Positions 19,412 through 63,240 are shown, counted from the stretch's first letter. The stretch is DNA of 64,000 bases from Mycobacterium sp. (GCA_035569455.1 DATMMZ010000285.1:9189-73188); one strand, 5' to 3'. Program-made: numbers and translations. Notes: generated from the sequence alone by a model not told the origin.

Positions 19412-21965
<2,554 letters not shown>

Positions 21966-21981
21966 AGGACGGTGTTCGATT

Positions 21982-22095: not shown

Positions 22096-22845
22096 ATGAT
22101 TTTTGGGGTGCACGACACTGCCCCGACCGACCACGACATCGGCGACATCGGCGCTGACATGCCGCCGGTGGTCGACGGCGCCGGCAAGAACGTCAACGTG
22201 GGCACCTTCCGCTTCTGGTTCGTCGGTCAGCGCTGGGAATGGTCCGACGAGGTGGCCCGGATGCACGGCTACGAACCGGGCTCGGTAGTGCCGACGACGG
22301 AATTGCTGCTTTCGCACAAACATCCGGACGACCGGGCCCATGTCCAGGATCTACTCGATCGCGCCCTGCATTCCCGGAGATCGTTCTCCAGCCGTCACCG
22401 GTTCATCGACACCGCCGGAGTCGTGCACGACGCGATCGTGGTGGCTGACCGCATGTTGGACGAGACGGGTGCGGTGGTGGGGACAGCCGGTTACTACATC
22501 GACCTCACCAACACCTTCGACGAGAACCGGCGGGAGGTCATCGACGAGGCCCTGCCGGACCTCGTGGAGGCGCGCGCGGTGATTGAGCAGGCCAAAGGTG
22601 TGCTGATGGCCGTTTACCGGGTCAGCGCCGATCAGGCCTTCGGAGTGCTGCGGTGGAGATCGCAGGAGACCAACATCAAACTGCGCGAGCTGGCCAAGCA
22701 ATTGGTCGCCGAAATACCGGCGCTGCCAGCACCGGCGGCGGATGTGCAAAGCGCGTTCGATCACCTTTTGCTTACGGTGCACCAACGCATCCTCGCGGTG
22801 TCTGAAGCAGAAAACGGCGATCACGTTAAGCTCGGTACACCTTAG
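22096..22845 (+). CDS. PAS + ANTAR domain protein
   Basis: PAS_3-like WEWSDE...HKHPDDR; C-terminal ANTAR IEQAKGVLM...AFGVLRWRSQETNIKLRELA. Confidence 0.9.
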   Translation: MIFGVHDTAPTDHDIGDIGADMPPVVDGAGKNVNVGTFRFWFVGQRWEWSDEVARMHGYEPGSVVPTTELLLSHKHPDDRAHVQDLLDRALHSRRSFSSRHRFIDTAGVVHDAIVVADRMLDETGAVVGTAGYYIDLTNTFDENRREVIDEALPDLVEARAVIEQAKGVLMAVYRVSADQAFGVLRWRSQETNIKLRELAKQLVAEIPALPAPAADVQSAFDHLLLTVHQRILAVSEAENGDHVKLGTP

Positions 22846-22938
22846 ACGACGGGTCGGCCGGAAACGGCGGGTCGACACCGCGTTTCGGCTTACGGTCGAC
22901 TCCGCTGCAGCGGTCCACGGCCGGACGTATCGAAGCGG

Positions 22939-23307
22939 GTGAGCATGGAATCGTTGGTAGTCGACTGTGAGGTCCGCTCGGAGGCGGTCGTTGTCAGCGC
23001 CAAGGGCGAAGTGGACTCCAACACCGCCGAACAGCTCGTCTCCCAACTCAACGCCGCGCTGTGCCAGGCCGCGGCCCACGCGGAGCGGCTGCTCATCATC
23101 GATCTGGACGAGCTGGCGTATTTCGGCAGTGCCGGCTTGAACGCTGTGCTCGAATGCCACCAGCAGGGGCTCGAAGCCGGGACGCCGGTGCGGCTGATCG
23201 CCAGCAACCGCATAGTGGTCAACCCGATCGAAGTGACGAAGCTGGACAAGACGCTGGCGGTCTACCGGACGTATCCGGACGCGCTGCAAGGCCGTGGAGA
23301 TCCATGA
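22939..23307 (+). CDS. STAS-domain anti-sigma-factor antagonist
   Basis: GEVDSNTA, IIDL..LAYFGSAGL with the conserved Ser. Start may be ATG 22945. Confidence 0.9.
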   Translation: MSMESLVVDCEVRSEAVVVSAKGEVDSNTAEQLVSQLNAALCQAAAHAERLLIIDLDELAYFGSAGLNAVLECHQQGLEAGTPVRLIASNRIVVNPIEVTKLDKTLAVYRTYPDALQGRGDP

Positions 23308-26300
23308 CCGAAGACCATCGCGCGGGCCGGCCCAGCGACCCACCGGATTTGCCCCCCGACCTCATTGCAGCGGTCGCATTGGGCGATGAAATGGGACAGC
23401 TTTTCGCCGAATTCGACTGGGCCGCACACCCGTTGGGGCCACCGGCGAACTGGCCGGCCGAGATGCGGACGACGGTGGCGACGACGCTCACGTCGCGGTT
23501 TCCGATCATCCTGTGGTTGAGCCCGCAGGATCTGTTCACGATGTACAACGAGGCCTACATTCCGATCCTCGGCAACAGGCACCCGTCGGCGTTAGGACGG
23601 CGTGGCGAGGAGGTGTGGTGGGACATCTGGGACGACATCGGCCCGATGATCGCCAGCGTGATCGACACCGGCAAGGCGGTCTGGGTTGATGACCTGTTGC
23701 TGCCGGTGATCACCGGCGGCCGACGGCAGGAACGGTATTTCACCTTCAGTTACAGCCCGCTGTTCGGCGACAGCGGAGTCGTGTACGGAGTCGTCGCGAC
23801 GGTCGCCGAGACCACGGATCGGGTGTTCAGTGAGCGCCGCCTGCACGTGCTCAATGCGGTGGCCTCCGCCACGATGGAAACCCGCACCGTCGATGATGCG
23901 GTGAGTGCCGCCGTCTCGGCGTGCGCCCAGCAGCCCGCGGATCTGCCGTTTGTCGCCGTCTACGTCGGTGACGGCGAGGGTGATGGAGCGGCCGCTGAGA
24001 TCACCTTGCGTGGAGCCACAGCATCGGTGCTGCCGCTGCTGCCGCGCACGCTGGGGGAATTGACCGACTGGGATCCCACTCAGCGGTCACGTGCGGAGAC
24101 ACGGCTCATCGCGGACGTCGTCTCGGTAATACCGGGCATCGACGAAGTGCTGCAGGGCGATCACCCGGACCGGGCGCTGGTGTTGCCGCTGGGCGAGGTT
24201 TCGACGACCGGCGCGCTGGTGGTGGGAACCAATCCGCGTTGCCCTCTCAATGCGCAATATCGGGGCTTTTGCCAGTTGCTCGCCGACCAGTTGTCCTCCG
24301 CGCTGGCCTCGGCGGTCTCATACGAGCAGGAGCGGCGACGCGGAGATGCGCTTGTCGAACTGGACCGCGCGAAGACGGCGTTCTTGACCAATGTCAGCCA
24401 CGAGTTCCGCACTCCGCTGACGCTGCTACTGGGCCCGCTCGACGATGCGCTGTCAGAGGCCGGCTCGGACGCGGCGCTGACGGATCGGTTGAGCACGGCG
24501 CGGCGTAATGCACAACGCCTGCAACGGTTGGTCGACTCCCTGCTCGATTTCTCGCGGATAGAAGCGGGGCGCGCGACCGCGAAGTTCGTGTGTACCGATT
24601 TGGGCGCGTTGACGTCGCATGTCGCGTCCTCGTTCAGCGAATTGTGCGAGCGCGCGGGACTCGAATTGATCCTCGACTGCGATCGCGTGTTGGCCGACGT
24701 GGATCCCGGCATGTGGGAAACCGTCATGCTCAACCTGCTGTCGAACGCGGTCAAGTTCACTATGCGGGGATCGATCACCGTTGAGGTACACAGCGAATCC
24801 GCGGAATGTCGCATCGCCGTCCGCGACACCGGCGTCGGTGTTGCGCAGGCGGACCTCAGACGGCTGGGTGAGCGGTTCTTTCGTGGCGAGAACGCGCGCG
24901 GCCGCAGCGTCGAGGGGACTGGAATCGGCTTGTCGCTGGTGCACGGCCTGGTGGAGCTGCAGCACGGAACCGTGCAGATCGCCAGCGAACTCGACCACGG
25001 CACCACCATCACGATCCGGCTGCCGAGATCAGTCGACGGCACACCGGTCGAACTTCGACCCGCCGGTTTGGAGGACAGTCCCTACGTCGTCGAGGCAGAT
25101 CAGTGGTTAGCGTCACCGACCGTCGCCGCGTGGAGTGACGACAAGCGGGAGTTGGTGCTGGTCGCCGACGACAACGCCGACATGCGGGCCCACCTGGAGC
25201 GAGTTTTATCGGCGCACTGGAGAACGGTCCTGGTTGCCGACGGCGAGGCGGCGCTGCGCACCACCCGAGAGCTTCGCCCAGACGCCATCGTGACCGACGT
25301 GATGATGCCGCGGCTCGACGGCTTCAGCCTCGTCGCGGCCATCCGCGCCGATCCCGACTTGGCGGCCACACCGATCCTCATGCTGTCCGCCCGTGCCGGC
25401 GTGGAGGCCGTCAGTGAAGGCTTCGCCGGCGGGGCCGATGACTACCTGCCTAAACCGTTTCGGTCGCACGAGCTGGTCGAGCGGGTGTCGGCACGATTGT
25501 CGGCGGCTGCCCGGGAACGTGAGAGCCGACGGTCAAGCGACGCCGAAGCCCAGGTTGCTACCGCGTTTGTGCAACTCGATACCGCCTTGCAGGCCGCCGA
25601 CTCCGTTACCGGAATTGTGGAGGCGCTGTTCGATTCTCCGGTCGGTTCAGGCGGCGCCAACGCCATCGCGATCGGCGTGCTGGACGCCGAAACGAACAAT
25701 GTCCGGTTCGACTACGCCGGAGCGGTGCCCGGCGAAATGCGAGACCGCTATCACCTTGTCTCGTTGGACACGCCGCTGATACCGGTCGACGTCATCAAGA
25801 CCGGTGAGCCGAGGATCATCACCGACACTTTCAGCCTCGCCCCGCGCTACGAGCACGTGGTACGGGAAACGACCGACAGCGTCCGGGCATGCGTCAGCCA
25901 GCCGTTGCGGGGCCAGGACGGAAGCGTCATAGGTTCGCTTGGCCTGTTGTGGTCCACACCGCGCGAGTTCGACCCCGATGAGCTGGAAATATTCGCTCGA
26001 ACTGCTGTCATGACCCAGTCCGCGCTGGACCGCGTTCGCATCATGCAACGCGAGCACCGGATCGCCGTCGACTTCCAGGAGCATCTGCTCGACTTGGACC
26101 GCGCTTCGACCGCCGCCGTCGTGGCGGCGTCCTATCAACCGGCGGGGAAGGCGATGCGTGTCGGCGGTGACTGGTATCTGGTGGTGCCGCTCGACATTCC
26201 GGGACGGATCGCGATATCGGTCGGCGACGTGGTCGGCCACGGCCTGCCCGCGGCAACCGTGATGAGCAGGCTCCGCGCCGCGGTGGCCGCCACCGCCCTG

Positions 26301-27224
26301 ACCGACCCGGATCCCGCAGCGGTGCTCGCCACGCTGGACAGGTACGCGGCGACAATGCCCGGCGCGCGCTGCGCGACCGTGAGCTACGGCGTGATCGACA
26401 CTGACTCGCAGACGGAGAGCGGCGACGGTGCCGCGAGCATCAGTTACACCTGCGCGGGCCATCCGTACCCGTTGATTGTGGCTCCCGATGGGACGCCGGC
26501 TTTCCTGCGGGCCGGGCGGCGTCCGCCGCTGGCGGCGTGGGAAGACGACGGCGAGCACAACACCGCCGAACACCCGCTGCCGCCGGGCAGTTTGGTTCTG
26601 TTTTATACCGATGGACTGATCGAAAGGCCTGGCGAGACCCTCGATCAAGGATTCGCGCGGCTGCAGGCCGCGGCTGCGCGCTGCGTTGACCTGCCGGTCG
26701 GGGATACCTGTGACGAGCTGATCGACAGAATGGCCCCGCCCGGGGGCTACACCGATGACGTCGTCGTCTTGGCGTTGCGTCCCAGCCACACCACGGCGCA
26801 CAGTTTCGCCGACGCCCTGCCGGCCGCGCCGGCCCATATCGCCGACGCGCGGCACCGGCTGCGGCGCTGGCTGAGAGGAATCGGCGCCGAGCCGCCGCGG
26901 GAAGTCGACATCCTGCTGGCGACAGGGGAAGCGCTCAGCAATGCGATCGAGCACGGCAACCGTGGCGCGTCCGGCCAGTCAGTTTTCGTCGAGGCCTTCG
27001 TGCGCGGTAGCGCCGTCACGACGACAGTCACCGATGCCGGCCGATGGTCGGGTGATTCGTCCGGTAGTCGGCGCGGTGGCCAGCGCGGACGCGGGCTGAC
27101 CCTGATCAACGGGCTGGCCGACTGCGTCGAGACCGTGCGCACCACGCAGGGCACCCGCGTCACGCTGCGTTTCGACCACGCACTCGCCACCGATTCCAGT
27201 CTGGCCGATTGGGGGAAACAGTGA
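23304..27224 (+). CDS. Multidomain signalling protein: PAS/GAF-like input, HisKA-HATPase, REC, GAF, SpoIIE/PP2C phosphatase, RsbW-like ATPase
   Basis: ATGA overlap with STAS. SHEFRTPL; NLLSNAVKF/DTGVG/GTGIGL; ADDN..TDVMMP..KP; GGDWY/GDVVGHG/AGH/YTDGL/DD; EALSNAIEHG/GRGL. Confidence 0.92.
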   Translation: MTEDHRAGRPSDPPDLPPDLIAAVALGDEMGQLFAEFDWAAHPLGPPANWPAEMRTTVATTLTSRFPIILWLSPQDLFTMYNEAYIPILGNRHPSALGRRGEEVWWDIWDDIGPMIASVIDTGKAVWVDDLLLPVITGGRRQERYFTFSYSPLFGDSGVVYGVVATVAETTDRVFSERRLHVLNAVASATMETRTVDDAVSAAVSACAQQPADLPFVAVYVGDGEGDGAAAEITLRGATASVLPLLPRTLGELTDWDPTQRSRAETRLIADVVSVIPGIDEVLQGDHPDRALVLPLGEVSTTGALVVGTNPRCPLNAQYRGFCQLLADQLSSALASAVSYEQERRRGDALVELDRAKTAFLTNVSHEFRTPLTLLLGPLDDALSEAGSDAALTDRLSTARRNAQRLQRLVDSLLDFSRIEAGRATAKFVCTDLGALTSHVASSFSELCERAGLELILDCDRVLADVDPGMWETVMLNLLSNAVKFTMRGSITVEVHSESAECRIAVRDTGVGVAQADLRRLGERFFRGENARGRSVEGTGIGLSLVHGLVELQHGTVQIASELDHGTTITIRLPRSVDGTPVELRPAGLEDSPYVVEADQWLASPTVAAWSDDKRELVLVADDNADMRAHLERVLSAHWRTVLVADGEAALRTTRELRPDAIVTDVMMPRLDGFSLVAAIRADPDLAATPILMLSARAGVEAVSEGFAGGADDYLPKPFRSHELVERVSARLSAAARERESRRSSDAEAQVATAFVQLDTALQAADSVTGIVEALFDSPVGSGGANAIAIGVLDAETNNVRFDYAGAVPGEMRDRYHLVSLDTPLIPVDVIKTGEPRIITDTFSLAPRYEHVVRETTDSVRACVSQPLRGQDGSVIGSLGLLWSTPREFDPDELEIFARTAVMTQSALDRVRIMQREHRIAVDFQEHLLDLDRASTAAVVAASYQPAGKAMRVGGDWYLVVPLDIPGRIAISVGDVVGHGLPAATVMSRLRAAVAATALTDPDPAAVLATLDRYAATMPGARCATVSYGVIDTDSQTESGDGAASISYTCAGHPYPLIVAPDGTPAFLRAGRRPPLAAWEDDGEHNTAEHPLPPGSLVLFYTDGLIERPGETLDQGFARLQAAAARCVDLPVGDTCDELIDRMAPPGGYTDDVVVLALRPSHTTAHSFADALPAAPAHIADARHRLRRWLRGIGAEPPREVDILLATGEALSNAIEHGNRGASGQSVFVEAFVRGSAVTTTVTDAGRWSGDSSGSRRGGQRGRGLTLINGLADCVETVRTTQGTRVTLRFDHALATDSSLADWGKQ

Positions 27225-27547
27225 ACCGCGCGGTGTTCACGCTGCGCAACGTCGGTGGTCGGCCGACACCCGAGGTCACCGTCACCGGCGAGATCGACGT
27301 CAGCAACGCCGACGACTTCGCGCAATCGGTGGGGGCGTTACCGGGCGGCCGCCCGATCATCCTGGCATTGAGCCGGCTGCAATACCTGGACAGCGCGGGT
27401 TTCGCCGCTCTGGATCGTCTACTTGCGCAGGGCACCGCCGTCGTCGTCATCTCACCGGAAAGCCTCGTGCACAAGGCGGCCGAGTTGATAAACCTGCCTT
27501 TTCACCACGATGCCGAGACCGCGCGCCAAGTGCTGCAGCAGGGCTGA
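27221..27547 (+). CDS. Second STAS-domain anti-sigma-factor antagonist
   Basis: GTGA overlap; GEIDVSNA; YLDSAG. Confidence 0.88.
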   Translation: MNRAVFTLRNVGGRPTPEVTVTGEIDVSNADDFAQSVGALPGGRPIILALSRLQYLDSAGFAALDRLLAQGTAVVVISPESLVHKAAELINLPFHHDAETARQVLQQG

Positions 27548-27549
27548 AG

Positions 27550-27828
27550 CTAGACCTCTTCCATCGCGTCGCCGAGTTCCTCGAGGAGCCGGTTGTGATG
27601 GTTGCTGGCCAATAGGTGGCCGGCGGCGATGACCAAAGCGACCGGCCAATCAATGAGTTCGAGAGCTGCCAGGGCGGCCAGACCGCCGTAGTACGCCAGT
27701 TGTTCGGGCCGCGGAATCTCGGTCTGGCCCAACAGCGGCAGGTTTACCACGAAGGTTTCGCCTTCGCGGACCTTCTCCACGGCCTCACGCTGAGACGTTG
27801 CCCGGCGAGCCTTCTTTTCCGCCATCAT
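27550..27828 (-). CDS. Conserved hypothetical protein (Rv0424c orthologue)
   Basis: EQLAYYGGLAALAALELIDWPVAL; GAAAGG SD; synteny. Confidence 0.85.
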   Translation of the reverse strand: MMAEKKARRATSQREAVEKVREGETFVVNLPLLGQTEIPRPEQLAYYGGLAALAALELIDWPVALVIAAGHLLASNHHNRLLEELGDAMEEV

Positions 27829-62680: not shown

Positions 62681-63240
62681 GATACGTCCAGGCAATTGCG
62701 CAGGCCGCGTAGCGCATCGCGCATGCGTGACTTGATCGTCGACAAATTGGCGGCTAACCGCCGCGACACCTCGGCGTAAGTCAGGCCGCCGTAGTAGGCC
62801 ATTTCGATGCACTGCCGCTGCGCATCCGTCAACGCGTCCAGGCATGCGATCACCCGGCGACGCTCGTCACCGGCGATCGCCGATTCGGCGACGACATCTC
62901 TTGCGGGGTCGACATTGGCCGCGCCGTAGCGCGATTCCCGCGCAGTGCCGGCTTGCTCGGTGCGAACCCGGTCGATGGCGCGCCGGTGCGCCATGGTCAG
63001 CAGCCAGGCGAGGGCGGAACCCTTGGCGGAATCGTATTCCGACGCGGACCGCCACACCTCGAGATAGACCTCCTGGGTGGTTTCTTCGCTGTAGCCGGAA
63101 TCACGCAGCACACGTACCACCAGCCCATACACCCGCGAATTGGTCTGGTCGTAGAACGCGCCGAACGCGTTGCGGTCCCCACGCGCGACCCTGCGCAGCA
63201 AGGCGTCCAGGTCGCTGCTCAGCCGTGCCGGTCCGGTCAT
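62677..63240 (-). CDS. sigK: ECF sigma factor SigK
   Basis: [25 protein letters not shown]...QC, IKSRMRD...CL. Confidence 0.95.

Follow-up and report, generated by a model that had tools for sequence, protein, structure and literature searches.

Results

Gene content and junctions of the locus

We analysed a 64,000-nucleotide stretch of DNA from Mycobacterium sp. (GCA_035569455.1 DATMMZ010000285.1:9189-73188; here called the window), which belongs to a draft assembly of 402 contigs that is about 80% complete. The locus under study is a cluster of four plus-strand genes at window positions 22096-27547, encoding in this order a PAS-ANTAR protein, a first STAS protein (STAS1), a 1306-residue multidomain protein for which we use the name MEGA, and a second STAS protein (STAS2). 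Judged by gene order and homology, what is new here is the PAS-ANTAR and STAS1 pair upstream of MEGA, a pair seen in Mycobacteriaceae only. An earlier note on this DNA had described four co-oriented genes after thiC, and the open reading frames, their coordinates and their Pfam domains were all recovered. The two overlaps by which the note saw the last three genes coupled can likewise be read in the sequence: the STAS1 stop and the MEGA start share ATGA at 23304-23307, and the MEGA stop and the GTG start of STAS2 share GTGA at 27221-27224, where a ribosome-binding site (GGGGGAAA) precedes the GTG. Both overlaps are conserved among the loci of relatives.

The first junction is of a different kind from what the note implied, as the PAS-ANTAR gene and STAS1 do not overlap and are separated by 93 nucleotides (22846-22938, +) with no recognisable regulatory RNA. 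This gap contains no Rfam family, terminator-like site or sigma-70 promoter consensus, and its fold is no better than random (z-score 0.16). A simple scan for dual ANNGNN hexaloop hairpins found none in the gap and none between 20 and 29 kilobases of the window; over the whole window, which is all that the scan covered, it gave 0 on the plus strand and 2 on the minus strand, no excess over the 3.25 of shuffled sequences, and mycobacterial ANTAR targets may sit elsewhere in the genome. The gap is only 17 nucleotides long in two related loci, L023 and L117.

MEGA is predicted to be a soluble three-enzyme protein

MEGA (23304-27224, +) has the domain order PAS/GAF-HisKA-HATPase-REC-GAF-PP2C-RsbW-like kinase, with seven Pfam domains, all above their curated cut-offs. 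Its N-terminal sensor region (23520-24368, +) consists of a PAS_4 domain (residues 73-173) found by Pfam and a GAF-like stretch indicated by precomputed GAF families in homologues. The histidine-kinase core follows (24369-25028, +), with HisKA at residues 356-422 (H366) and HATPase_c at residues 472-575 (N, G1 and G2 boxes), and then a receiver (Response_reg, residues 618-728; 25155-25487, +), assigned by Pfam and by its motifs (D622/D623, phospho-acceptor D665, S695 and K717). Between the receiver and the phosphatase Pfam places a GAF_2 domain (residues 785-903; 25656-26012, +), besides which MEGA has a second GAF stretch. The C-terminal part comprises a PP2C/SpoIIE phosphatase (residues 966-1159; 26199-26780, +; Pfam 133.7 bits), with D956, D975, D1103 and D1151/1152, which aligns residue by residue to Rv1364c (PDB 3KE6), and an RsbW/SpoIIAB-like GHKL domain of the serine kinase/anti-sigma type (HATPase_c_2, residues 1172-1290; 26817-27173, +; Pfam 99.3 bits and alignment to the kinase domain of Rv1364c).

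The kinase, receiver, phosphatase and anti-sigma parts named in the earlier note are thus recognised by Pfam above cut-offs as HisKA, HATPase_c, Response_reg, SpoIIE and HATPase_c_2, and every catalytic residue that it listed is present and invariant in 12 MEGA homologues of 37-70% identity. In the histidine kinase these are H366 in SHEFRTPL, N481 and the DTGVG and GTGIG boxes; in the receiver, D622/D623, D665, S695 and K717; in the phosphatase, GGDW (D956), GDVVGHG (D975), YTDGL (D1103) and DD (1151/1152); and in the RsbW-like domain, E1209/N1213/H1217, D1244-x-G and G-R-G 1262-1264. MEGA therefore has the H-box His, the N, G1 and G2 boxes and the C-terminal receiver acceptor Asp of a hybrid histidine kinase. 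Pfam detects no Hpt domain in MEGA or its neighbours. Since MEGA has no hydrophobic segment (maximum Kyte-Doolittle 19-residue mean 1.45), it should be a cytoplasmic sensor. Its best NCBIfam matches are partial (LvrA-type, 220 bits against a cut-off of 1200), hence it falls in no named equivalog.

The MEGA family falls into two clades

More than 6000 relatives of MEGA are found in a large protein collection. Over 100 of these are orthologues with 65-97% identity and the same domain list, mostly from soil metagenomes, Mycobacterium numidiamassiliense, M. kyorinense and M. cookii, and they are annotated just as 'SpoIIE family protein phosphatase'. Full-length MEGA proteins also occur in Streptomyces, Actinacidiphila, Kutzneria, Actinoplanes and Actinomycetospora. 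A profile search of contigs with the MEGA alignment returned, among its best 80 matches, mostly generic hybrid kinases together with seven full-length actinobacterial MEGA loci, none of them from Mycobacterium. Residues 1-750 (23304-25550) share about 40% identity with hybrid kinases of cyanobacteria, Acidobacteriota, Chloroflexota, Planctomycetota and proteobacteria; the sensor-kinase-receiver part is a soluble sensor module shared across phyla.

In a quick maximum-likelihood tree with midpoint rooting, the MEGA of the window belongs to a clade (clade I) that contains only Mycobacterium and sits on a long stem, and the second clade (clade II) extends over the actinomycetes, its members having an additional PAS domain of about 100 residues after the receiver. 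The host genome encodes a second MEGA, of clade II (1380 residues; contig C120:2388-6865, L017), which is followed by its own STAS2-type gene and has no ANTAR or STAS1 neighbour. Two variant forms were also seen. At a thiC locus of genome G097 (L107:7811-9400), ANTAR and STAS1 genes are followed by the GAF-PP2C-kinase half only (aligned residues 759-1295), a natural Rv1364c-like short form without the kinase-receiver half, and in genome G008 (L016:7141-10949) MEGA is broken across two frames near residues 708-750.

The STAS proteins

STAS1 (22939-23307, +; 122 residues) is of the anti-sigma-antagonist type, scoring 43.8 bits with Pfam STAS and 54.8 bits with TIGR00377 (cut-off 53.45), and its profile matches RsfB (8IH8, 4.4e-12) and SpoIIAA. 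STAS2 (27221-27547, +; 108 residues from the GTG, with an alternative TTG start at 27209) lies above the Pfam cut-offs for STAS_2 (33.4 bits) and STAS (29.5 bits) and below that of TIGR00377. Both proteins keep the phospho-Ser motif, as the earlier note had read: the candidate Ser64 of STAS1 (codon 23128-23130) lies in an FGSAGLN motif that is invariant in 15 STAS1 sequences, and the candidate Ser58 of STAS2 (numbered from the GTG) lies in YLDSAG, which is conserved in 13 STAS2-type sequences. The two proteins show no significant pairwise similarity and are thus not recent duplicates of each other.

In all clade II loci that we examined, including those of Streptomyces, Kutzneria and mycobacteria, MEGA is immediately followed by a STAS2-type gene. 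In a metagenome-assembled genome of an uncultured Actinomycetospora (L036:1888-7353), a MEGA homologue and a STAS2-type domain (residues 1733-1792) occupy one frame of 1822 residues, the only fused form found, in which enzyme and presumed substrate have been joined naturally. Given the constant downstream gene and this fusion, MEGA and STAS2 therefore form an old core unit. By its position, STAS2 is to all appearances the ancient cognate STAS protein of the MEGA family.

Linkage of the PAS-ANTAR gene to the switch genes

We counted gene neighbourhoods in 121 genomes of the genus, delimiting the PAS-ANTAR clade at 63% identity or more. Its 64 loci comprise 28 with STAS1 and a clade I MEGA, 14 with STAS1 and a clade II MEGA, nine with STAS1 only and 13 in which the gene stands alone. 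Viewed from the other genes, 51 of the 60 STAS1 loci adjoin this ANTAR clade, and the ANTAR-STAS1 pair accompanies 28 of the 30 clade I MEGA loci and 14 of the 59 clade II loci. Missing co-conservation of the ANTAR gene with the cluster had been set beforehand as grounds for giving up the association, and these counts give no such grounds.

Several of the apparent exceptions turn out to be ANTAR remnants, namely a PAS-less stub (L120) and frameshifted genes (L143 of genome G016 and L144 of genome G124). At L144 damage extends to the ANTAR gene, STAS1 and MEGA alike, STAS1 carrying a TGA and MEGA an internal deletion in which profile positions of about 170-800 are missing; from such sequences, the cassette seems to decay as a unit. 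Many of the related genomes that we looked at lack it or have it in decayed form. At the thiC locus the variants form a graded series: ANTAR alone; with STAS1; with STAS1 and the C-terminal half of MEGA; the full set minus STAS2; and the full set.

The clade II cassettes lie at another chromosomal place, away from thiC, and have the same order of ANTAR, STAS1, MEGA and STAS2, with an ANTAR-STAS1 gap of down to 17 nucleotides and one-base overlaps further on. The MEGA proteins of clade I and clade II cassettes are only about 40% identical to each other. None of the 13 paralogous PAS-ANTAR genes that were checked (about 50% identity) has a MEGA neighbour, and their loci gave one weak STAS-like match only (L140, E about 1e-6). 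The ANTAR protein itself is equally conserved alone and linked, whereas clade I MEGA almost never occurs without ANTAR; conserved where it stands alone, the ANTAR protein must therefore have a function of its own, independent of the switch.

The PAS-ANTAR protein

The first gene (22096-22845, +) encodes a PAS_3-ANTAR protein of 249 residues counted from the first ATG, and with 69.1 bits (cut-off 27.3) its ANTAR domain is above the curated Pfam threshold; PAS_3 scores 41 bits. As conservation is lacking over the first ~30 residues, this start is uncertain, and translation may in fact begin at the ATG at 22159. Across 21 aligned orthologues the mean column identity is 70%, and the profile made from them matches PDB 6HMJ (PAL) with E = 2.4e-27. 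The protein is a homologue of the PAS-ANTAR part of PAL that lacks the LOV domain and ends in a short conserved helix (FDHLLLT). Its close relatives are confined almost entirely to Mycobacteriaceae. An AlphaFold2 model has a mean predicted local distance difference test score of 63 and is confident for the PAS domain only, the ANTAR part lying at ~50.

AmiR and NasT are ANTAR proteins kept inactive by partner proteins, AmiC and NasS, respectively. PAL is a PAS-ANTAR-LOV RNA-binding photoreceptor of Nakamurella multipartita in which the LOV module and helices autoinhibit RNA binding non-covalently (PMC12797116). Like the protein of the first gene, PAL is actinobacterial and has homologous PAS and ANTAR domains; RNA binding is gated in PAL by contacts with another domain of the same chain, whereas any gating partner of the LOV-less protein would have to act in trans. 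The PAL precedent together with the AmiC-AmiR and NasS-NasT pairs therefore makes a trans-acting partner plausible, without pointing to STAS1 as that partner.

Sigma factors and expression

The earlier note had stressed that no sigma gene is local to the cluster, and this holds. The sole sigma gene of the window is of the extracytoplasmic function type (~62953-63153, -; Sigma70_r2 57.5 bits) and lies about 35 kilobases from the cluster, so the locus differs from the canonical rsbV-rsbW-sigB and spoIIAA-AB-sigF arrangements, in which the sigma gene is in the operon. A SigB/F/G-type gene (sigF) is found on contig C20, where it adjoins an RsbW-like (usfX-like) anti-sigma gene, with a STAS gene nearby. 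The incomplete host genome contains at least 14 STAS genes, several more PP2C and RsbW-like proteins and, on contig C184, a separate Rv1364c-like gene; given so many STAS, PP2C and RsbW-like proteins, it must therefore hold a dense partner-switching network.

In soil metatranscriptomes of four studies, short contigs align to parts of each of the four genes (22131-27547) with 98-100% identity. This organism, or one closely related to it, was therefore represented in several soil RNA libraries, which fits an expression of the four genes in soil.

Relation to known partner switches

In M. smegmatis, the histidine kinase RsfS phosphorylates RsfR (REC-PP2C) and thereby lowers its phosphatase activity on the STAS protein RsfB (PMC10950880); RsbW2 is the serine kinase that opposes RsfR on RsfB, and the system controls SigF (PMC10950880, PMC7693655). 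The same four activities are predicted for the MEGA locus, in the same organism family, with a receiver-tuned PP2C set against an RsbW-like kinase on a STAS serine and with no sigma gene in the cluster. The likeness is one of activities. MEGA has three enzymes in one 1306-residue chain with a GAF domain between receiver and phosphatase, its sensor is a soluble PAS/GAF region whereas that of RsfS is a membrane-bound CHASE3, and its locus has two unrelated STAS genes and an ANTAR gene in the operon.

HsbR of Pseudomonas and CrsR of Shewanella resemble MEGA in layout. In these proteins receiver phosphorylation toggles kinase against phosphatase activity on a STAS partner (PMC6482189), and the STAS protein has non-sigma partners, namely the diguanylate cyclase HsbD and FlgM (PMC6482189, PMC5085249). 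HsbR-HsbA (P. aeruginosa, with HptB) and CrsR-CrsA share with MEGA the order REC, PP2C, GHKL in one protein, into which MEGA inserts a GAF domain, and the adjacent STAS gene, MEGA being overlapped by STAS1 upstream and by STAS2 downstream. Unlike MEGA, which has its own HisKA and HATPase_c directly upstream and no Hpt, they receive phosphate from separate hybrid kinases through Hpt; moreover, they belong to another phylum, lack the extra GAF and have no detectable close sequence relationship to MEGA. Since its histidine kinase is fused and an Hpt is absent, we regard MEGA as working like the HsbR/CrsR type and do not file it as a member.

The closest solved relative of the phosphatase-kinase half is Rv1364c of M. 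tuberculosis, which, as summarised in PMC7693655, both adds phosphate to its own STAS domain and removes it, and which binds SigF in vitro. Its PP2C-kinase fragment (PDB 3KE6) aligns with MEGA residues 937-1289 at E = 4.1e-39, covering 3KE6 residues 6-357 of 374, with the catalytic motifs shared. The order phosphatase-kinase-STAS is the same in both, but Rv1364c has no histidine kinase, receiver or GAF, and its STAS domain is fused, whereas STAS2 is a separate gene joined by the GTGA overlap. In Bacillus cereus, as described in PMC10950880, the hybrid kinase RsbK with its GAF sensor acts on the receiver-PP2C protein RsbY and through it on the STAS antagonist RsbV. This RsbK-RsbY-RsbV-RsbW-SigB system resembles MEGA in that a hybrid kinase with GAF controls a receiver-PP2C acting on STAS; it differs in being made of separate proteins, in having the sigma gene in the cluster and in having no ANTAR gene.

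In the literature, we found no paper on the fused MEGA form itself and nothing relevant on ANTAR with an anti-sigma antagonist, STAS or partner switching in mycobacteria. The switch logic, which the earlier note took to be uncharacterised, has already been studied in RsfS-RsfR-RsbW2-RsfB, in HsbR/CrsR and in Rv1364c. As a system, too, it is less singular than was supposed, MEGA with a downstream STAS gene being ancient and widespread in Actinomycetota without an ANTAR gene. Judged by its domains, MEGA unites in one chain parts whose logic is known from other systems. The note's view that it holds both writer and eraser of STAS phosphorylation under His-Asp control is well founded by homology, as all parts are present; it is not a new principle.

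Discussion

Partner switching is a textbook route to the control of sigma factors. We propose that the four genes form one operon encoding a partner-switching input module without a sigma factor of its own. Signals would reach the N-terminal PAS/GAF region of MEGA in the cytoplasm and set the autophosphorylation of H366, from which the phosphoryl group would move to D665 within the same chain. The state of the receiver would then pass along a helical linker and the GAF domain and shift the balance between the PP2C phosphatase and the RsbW-like kinase. MEGA would act on the conserved serines of both STAS proteins, STAS2 being the ancestral and translationally coupled partner, and the phosphorylation state of STAS2 and STAS1 would be its output. 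From domain content and conserved residues, this core of cytoplasmic sensing, His-Asp relay and setting of STAS2/STAS1 serine phosphorylation is probable. All enzymatic steps, the direction in which the receiver exerts control and the two outputs are what we infer.

For the output we favour a branched scheme. STAS2 and the RsbW-like domain may act on the SigF/anti-SigF network, whose genes lie elsewhere, in the way of Rv1364c and RsfB; we put this branch forward tentatively, by analogy with these two, and it is compatible with an ANTAR branch. The latter would run through STAS1, whose gene seldom occurs away from the PAS-ANTAR gene and whose product would couple the switch to that RNA-binding regulator, or through the RsbW-like domain. 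Conservation of gene order makes the ANTAR branch a possibility to which we attach limited confidence, and it is in turn compatible with the SigF branch. A partner switch rewired in Mycobacteriaceae, in which one phospho-form of STAS1 or the RsbW-like domain engages the PAS-ANTAR dimer and gates its RNA binding instead of, or besides, acting on a sigma factor, would join a His-Asp-Ser phosphorelay to post-transcriptional control; it seems rather unlikely.

Several observations weigh against the branched scheme. The PAS-ANTAR gene is intact, with 70-78% identity and at the same locus, in the 13 loci that have neither STAS1 nor MEGA, and in nine others STAS1 is present without a full MEGA. No ANTAR neighbour is present for 41 of the 59 clade II MEGA genes, nor for any non-mycobacterial MEGA examined. 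The counted genomes are related, hence the counts overstate independence, and the quick midpoint-rooted tree, with its long clade I stem, is compatible with one or two origins of the ANTAR association. The metatranscriptome contigs bridge no gene junction and might stem from DNA carry-over. In HsbR and RsbY the phosphatase is activated when the receiver is phosphorylated, and in RsfR it is inhibited (PMC10950880); because these systems respond oppositely, the sign of receiver control in MEGA is not predictable.

Alternatively, the switch might feed SigF only, the ANTAR gene being a bystander, an older resident of the thiC locus that shares its promoter with an inserted module. This would agree with the PAS-ANTAR gene standing alone between thiC and the 92-residue gene that bounds the cluster on the right in at least eight sequenced loci and in 13 of the 64 counted, with the occurrence of MEGA and STAS2 without an ANTAR gene across Actinomycetota, with the presence of sigF and usfX-like genes in the host genome, and with the action on SigF of the closest studied relatives, Rv1364c and RsfB (PMC7693655, PMC10950880). 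A bystander does not readily explain, however, that the four-gene order recurs at a different place, with a MEGA of about 40% identity and an ANTAR-STAS1 gap of 17 nucleotides, or that STAS1 is almost never found away from the ANTAR clade (51 of 60, several of the others adjoining ANTAR pseudogenes). Nor does chance neighbourhood account for the joint decay of the cassette at L144. We consider a pure SigF input rather unlikely, and would say the same of its particular mode, in which the STAS proteins antagonise the UsfX-like anti-sigma factor or the RsbW-like domain sequesters SigF.

At the other extreme, the ANTAR protein could be a sequestered output that replaces the sigma factor, the RsbW-like domain or one phospho-form of STAS1 blocking its RNA binding until the switch releases it. 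The co-conservation and operon coupling of PAS-ANTAR, STAS1 and MEGA speak for such an arrangement, as does the position of the PAS-ANTAR gene in the slot that the sigma gene takes in canonical rsbV-rsbW-sigB operons; its nearest solved relative, PAL (6HMJ), is moreover autoinhibited by non-covalent domain contacts (PMC12797116). Yet the ANTAR-only loci indicate that the protein works without the switch, the simple scan found no canonical dual-hexaloop target near the locus, and the ancestral MEGA-STAS2 pair has no ANTAR partner. We regard this replacement as doubtful, and consequently also that the pathway ends in the control of translation or antitermination and not of transcription initiation. 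A more local role, in which the ANTAR protein binds the leader at 22846-22938 and controls read-through or translation of STAS1-MEGA-STAS2, is suggested by the habit of ANTAR proteins to regulate adjacent genes, by the 93-nucleotide gap ahead of STAS1 and by mycobacterial ANTAR proteins that repress translation at the starts of open reading frames (bioRxiv 10.1101/660928). This is very improbable: the gap has no above-random fold (z = 0.16), no terminator and no dual ANNGNN hexaloops, it shrinks to 17 nucleotides in L023 and L117, and the regulator is retained where its supposed target genes have been deleted.

Altogether, the locus is a fused architecture with a conserved ANTAR partner and is less exceptional than the earlier note judged. 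In mycobacteria and streptomycetes, PP2C, RsbW-like and STAS proteins without an assigned pathway number in the dozens. With sensor, relay, kinase and phosphatase in one soluble chain beside the substrates, MEGA offers a compact model for how receiver phosphorylation decides which of kinase and phosphatase prevails. Should the ANTAR protein be a true output, this would be the first link that we could find between a STAS phospho-switch and RNA-level regulation, and one of the many mycobacterial PAS/GAF-ANTAR proteins still awaiting study would gain an upstream signal. If it is not, the locus would be another input into the SigF network of environmental mycobacteria.

Flanking genes

A recent horizontal insertion of the island was considered and rejected, because its guanine-cytosine content (0.65-0.69) equals that of the flanks and the locus variants resemble progressive deletion. 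On the left lies thiC (20232-21872, -; NCBIfam ThiC 890 bits), preceded by a thiamine pyrophosphate riboswitch (21856-21967, -; 60.4 bits). Between this riboswitch and the PAS-ANTAR gene there are about 130-190 nucleotides of divergent promoter space. On the right, the cluster is bounded by a conserved gene of 92 residues without a family match (27550-27828, -), and beyond it follows a gene for a CtpH-like P-type ATPase.

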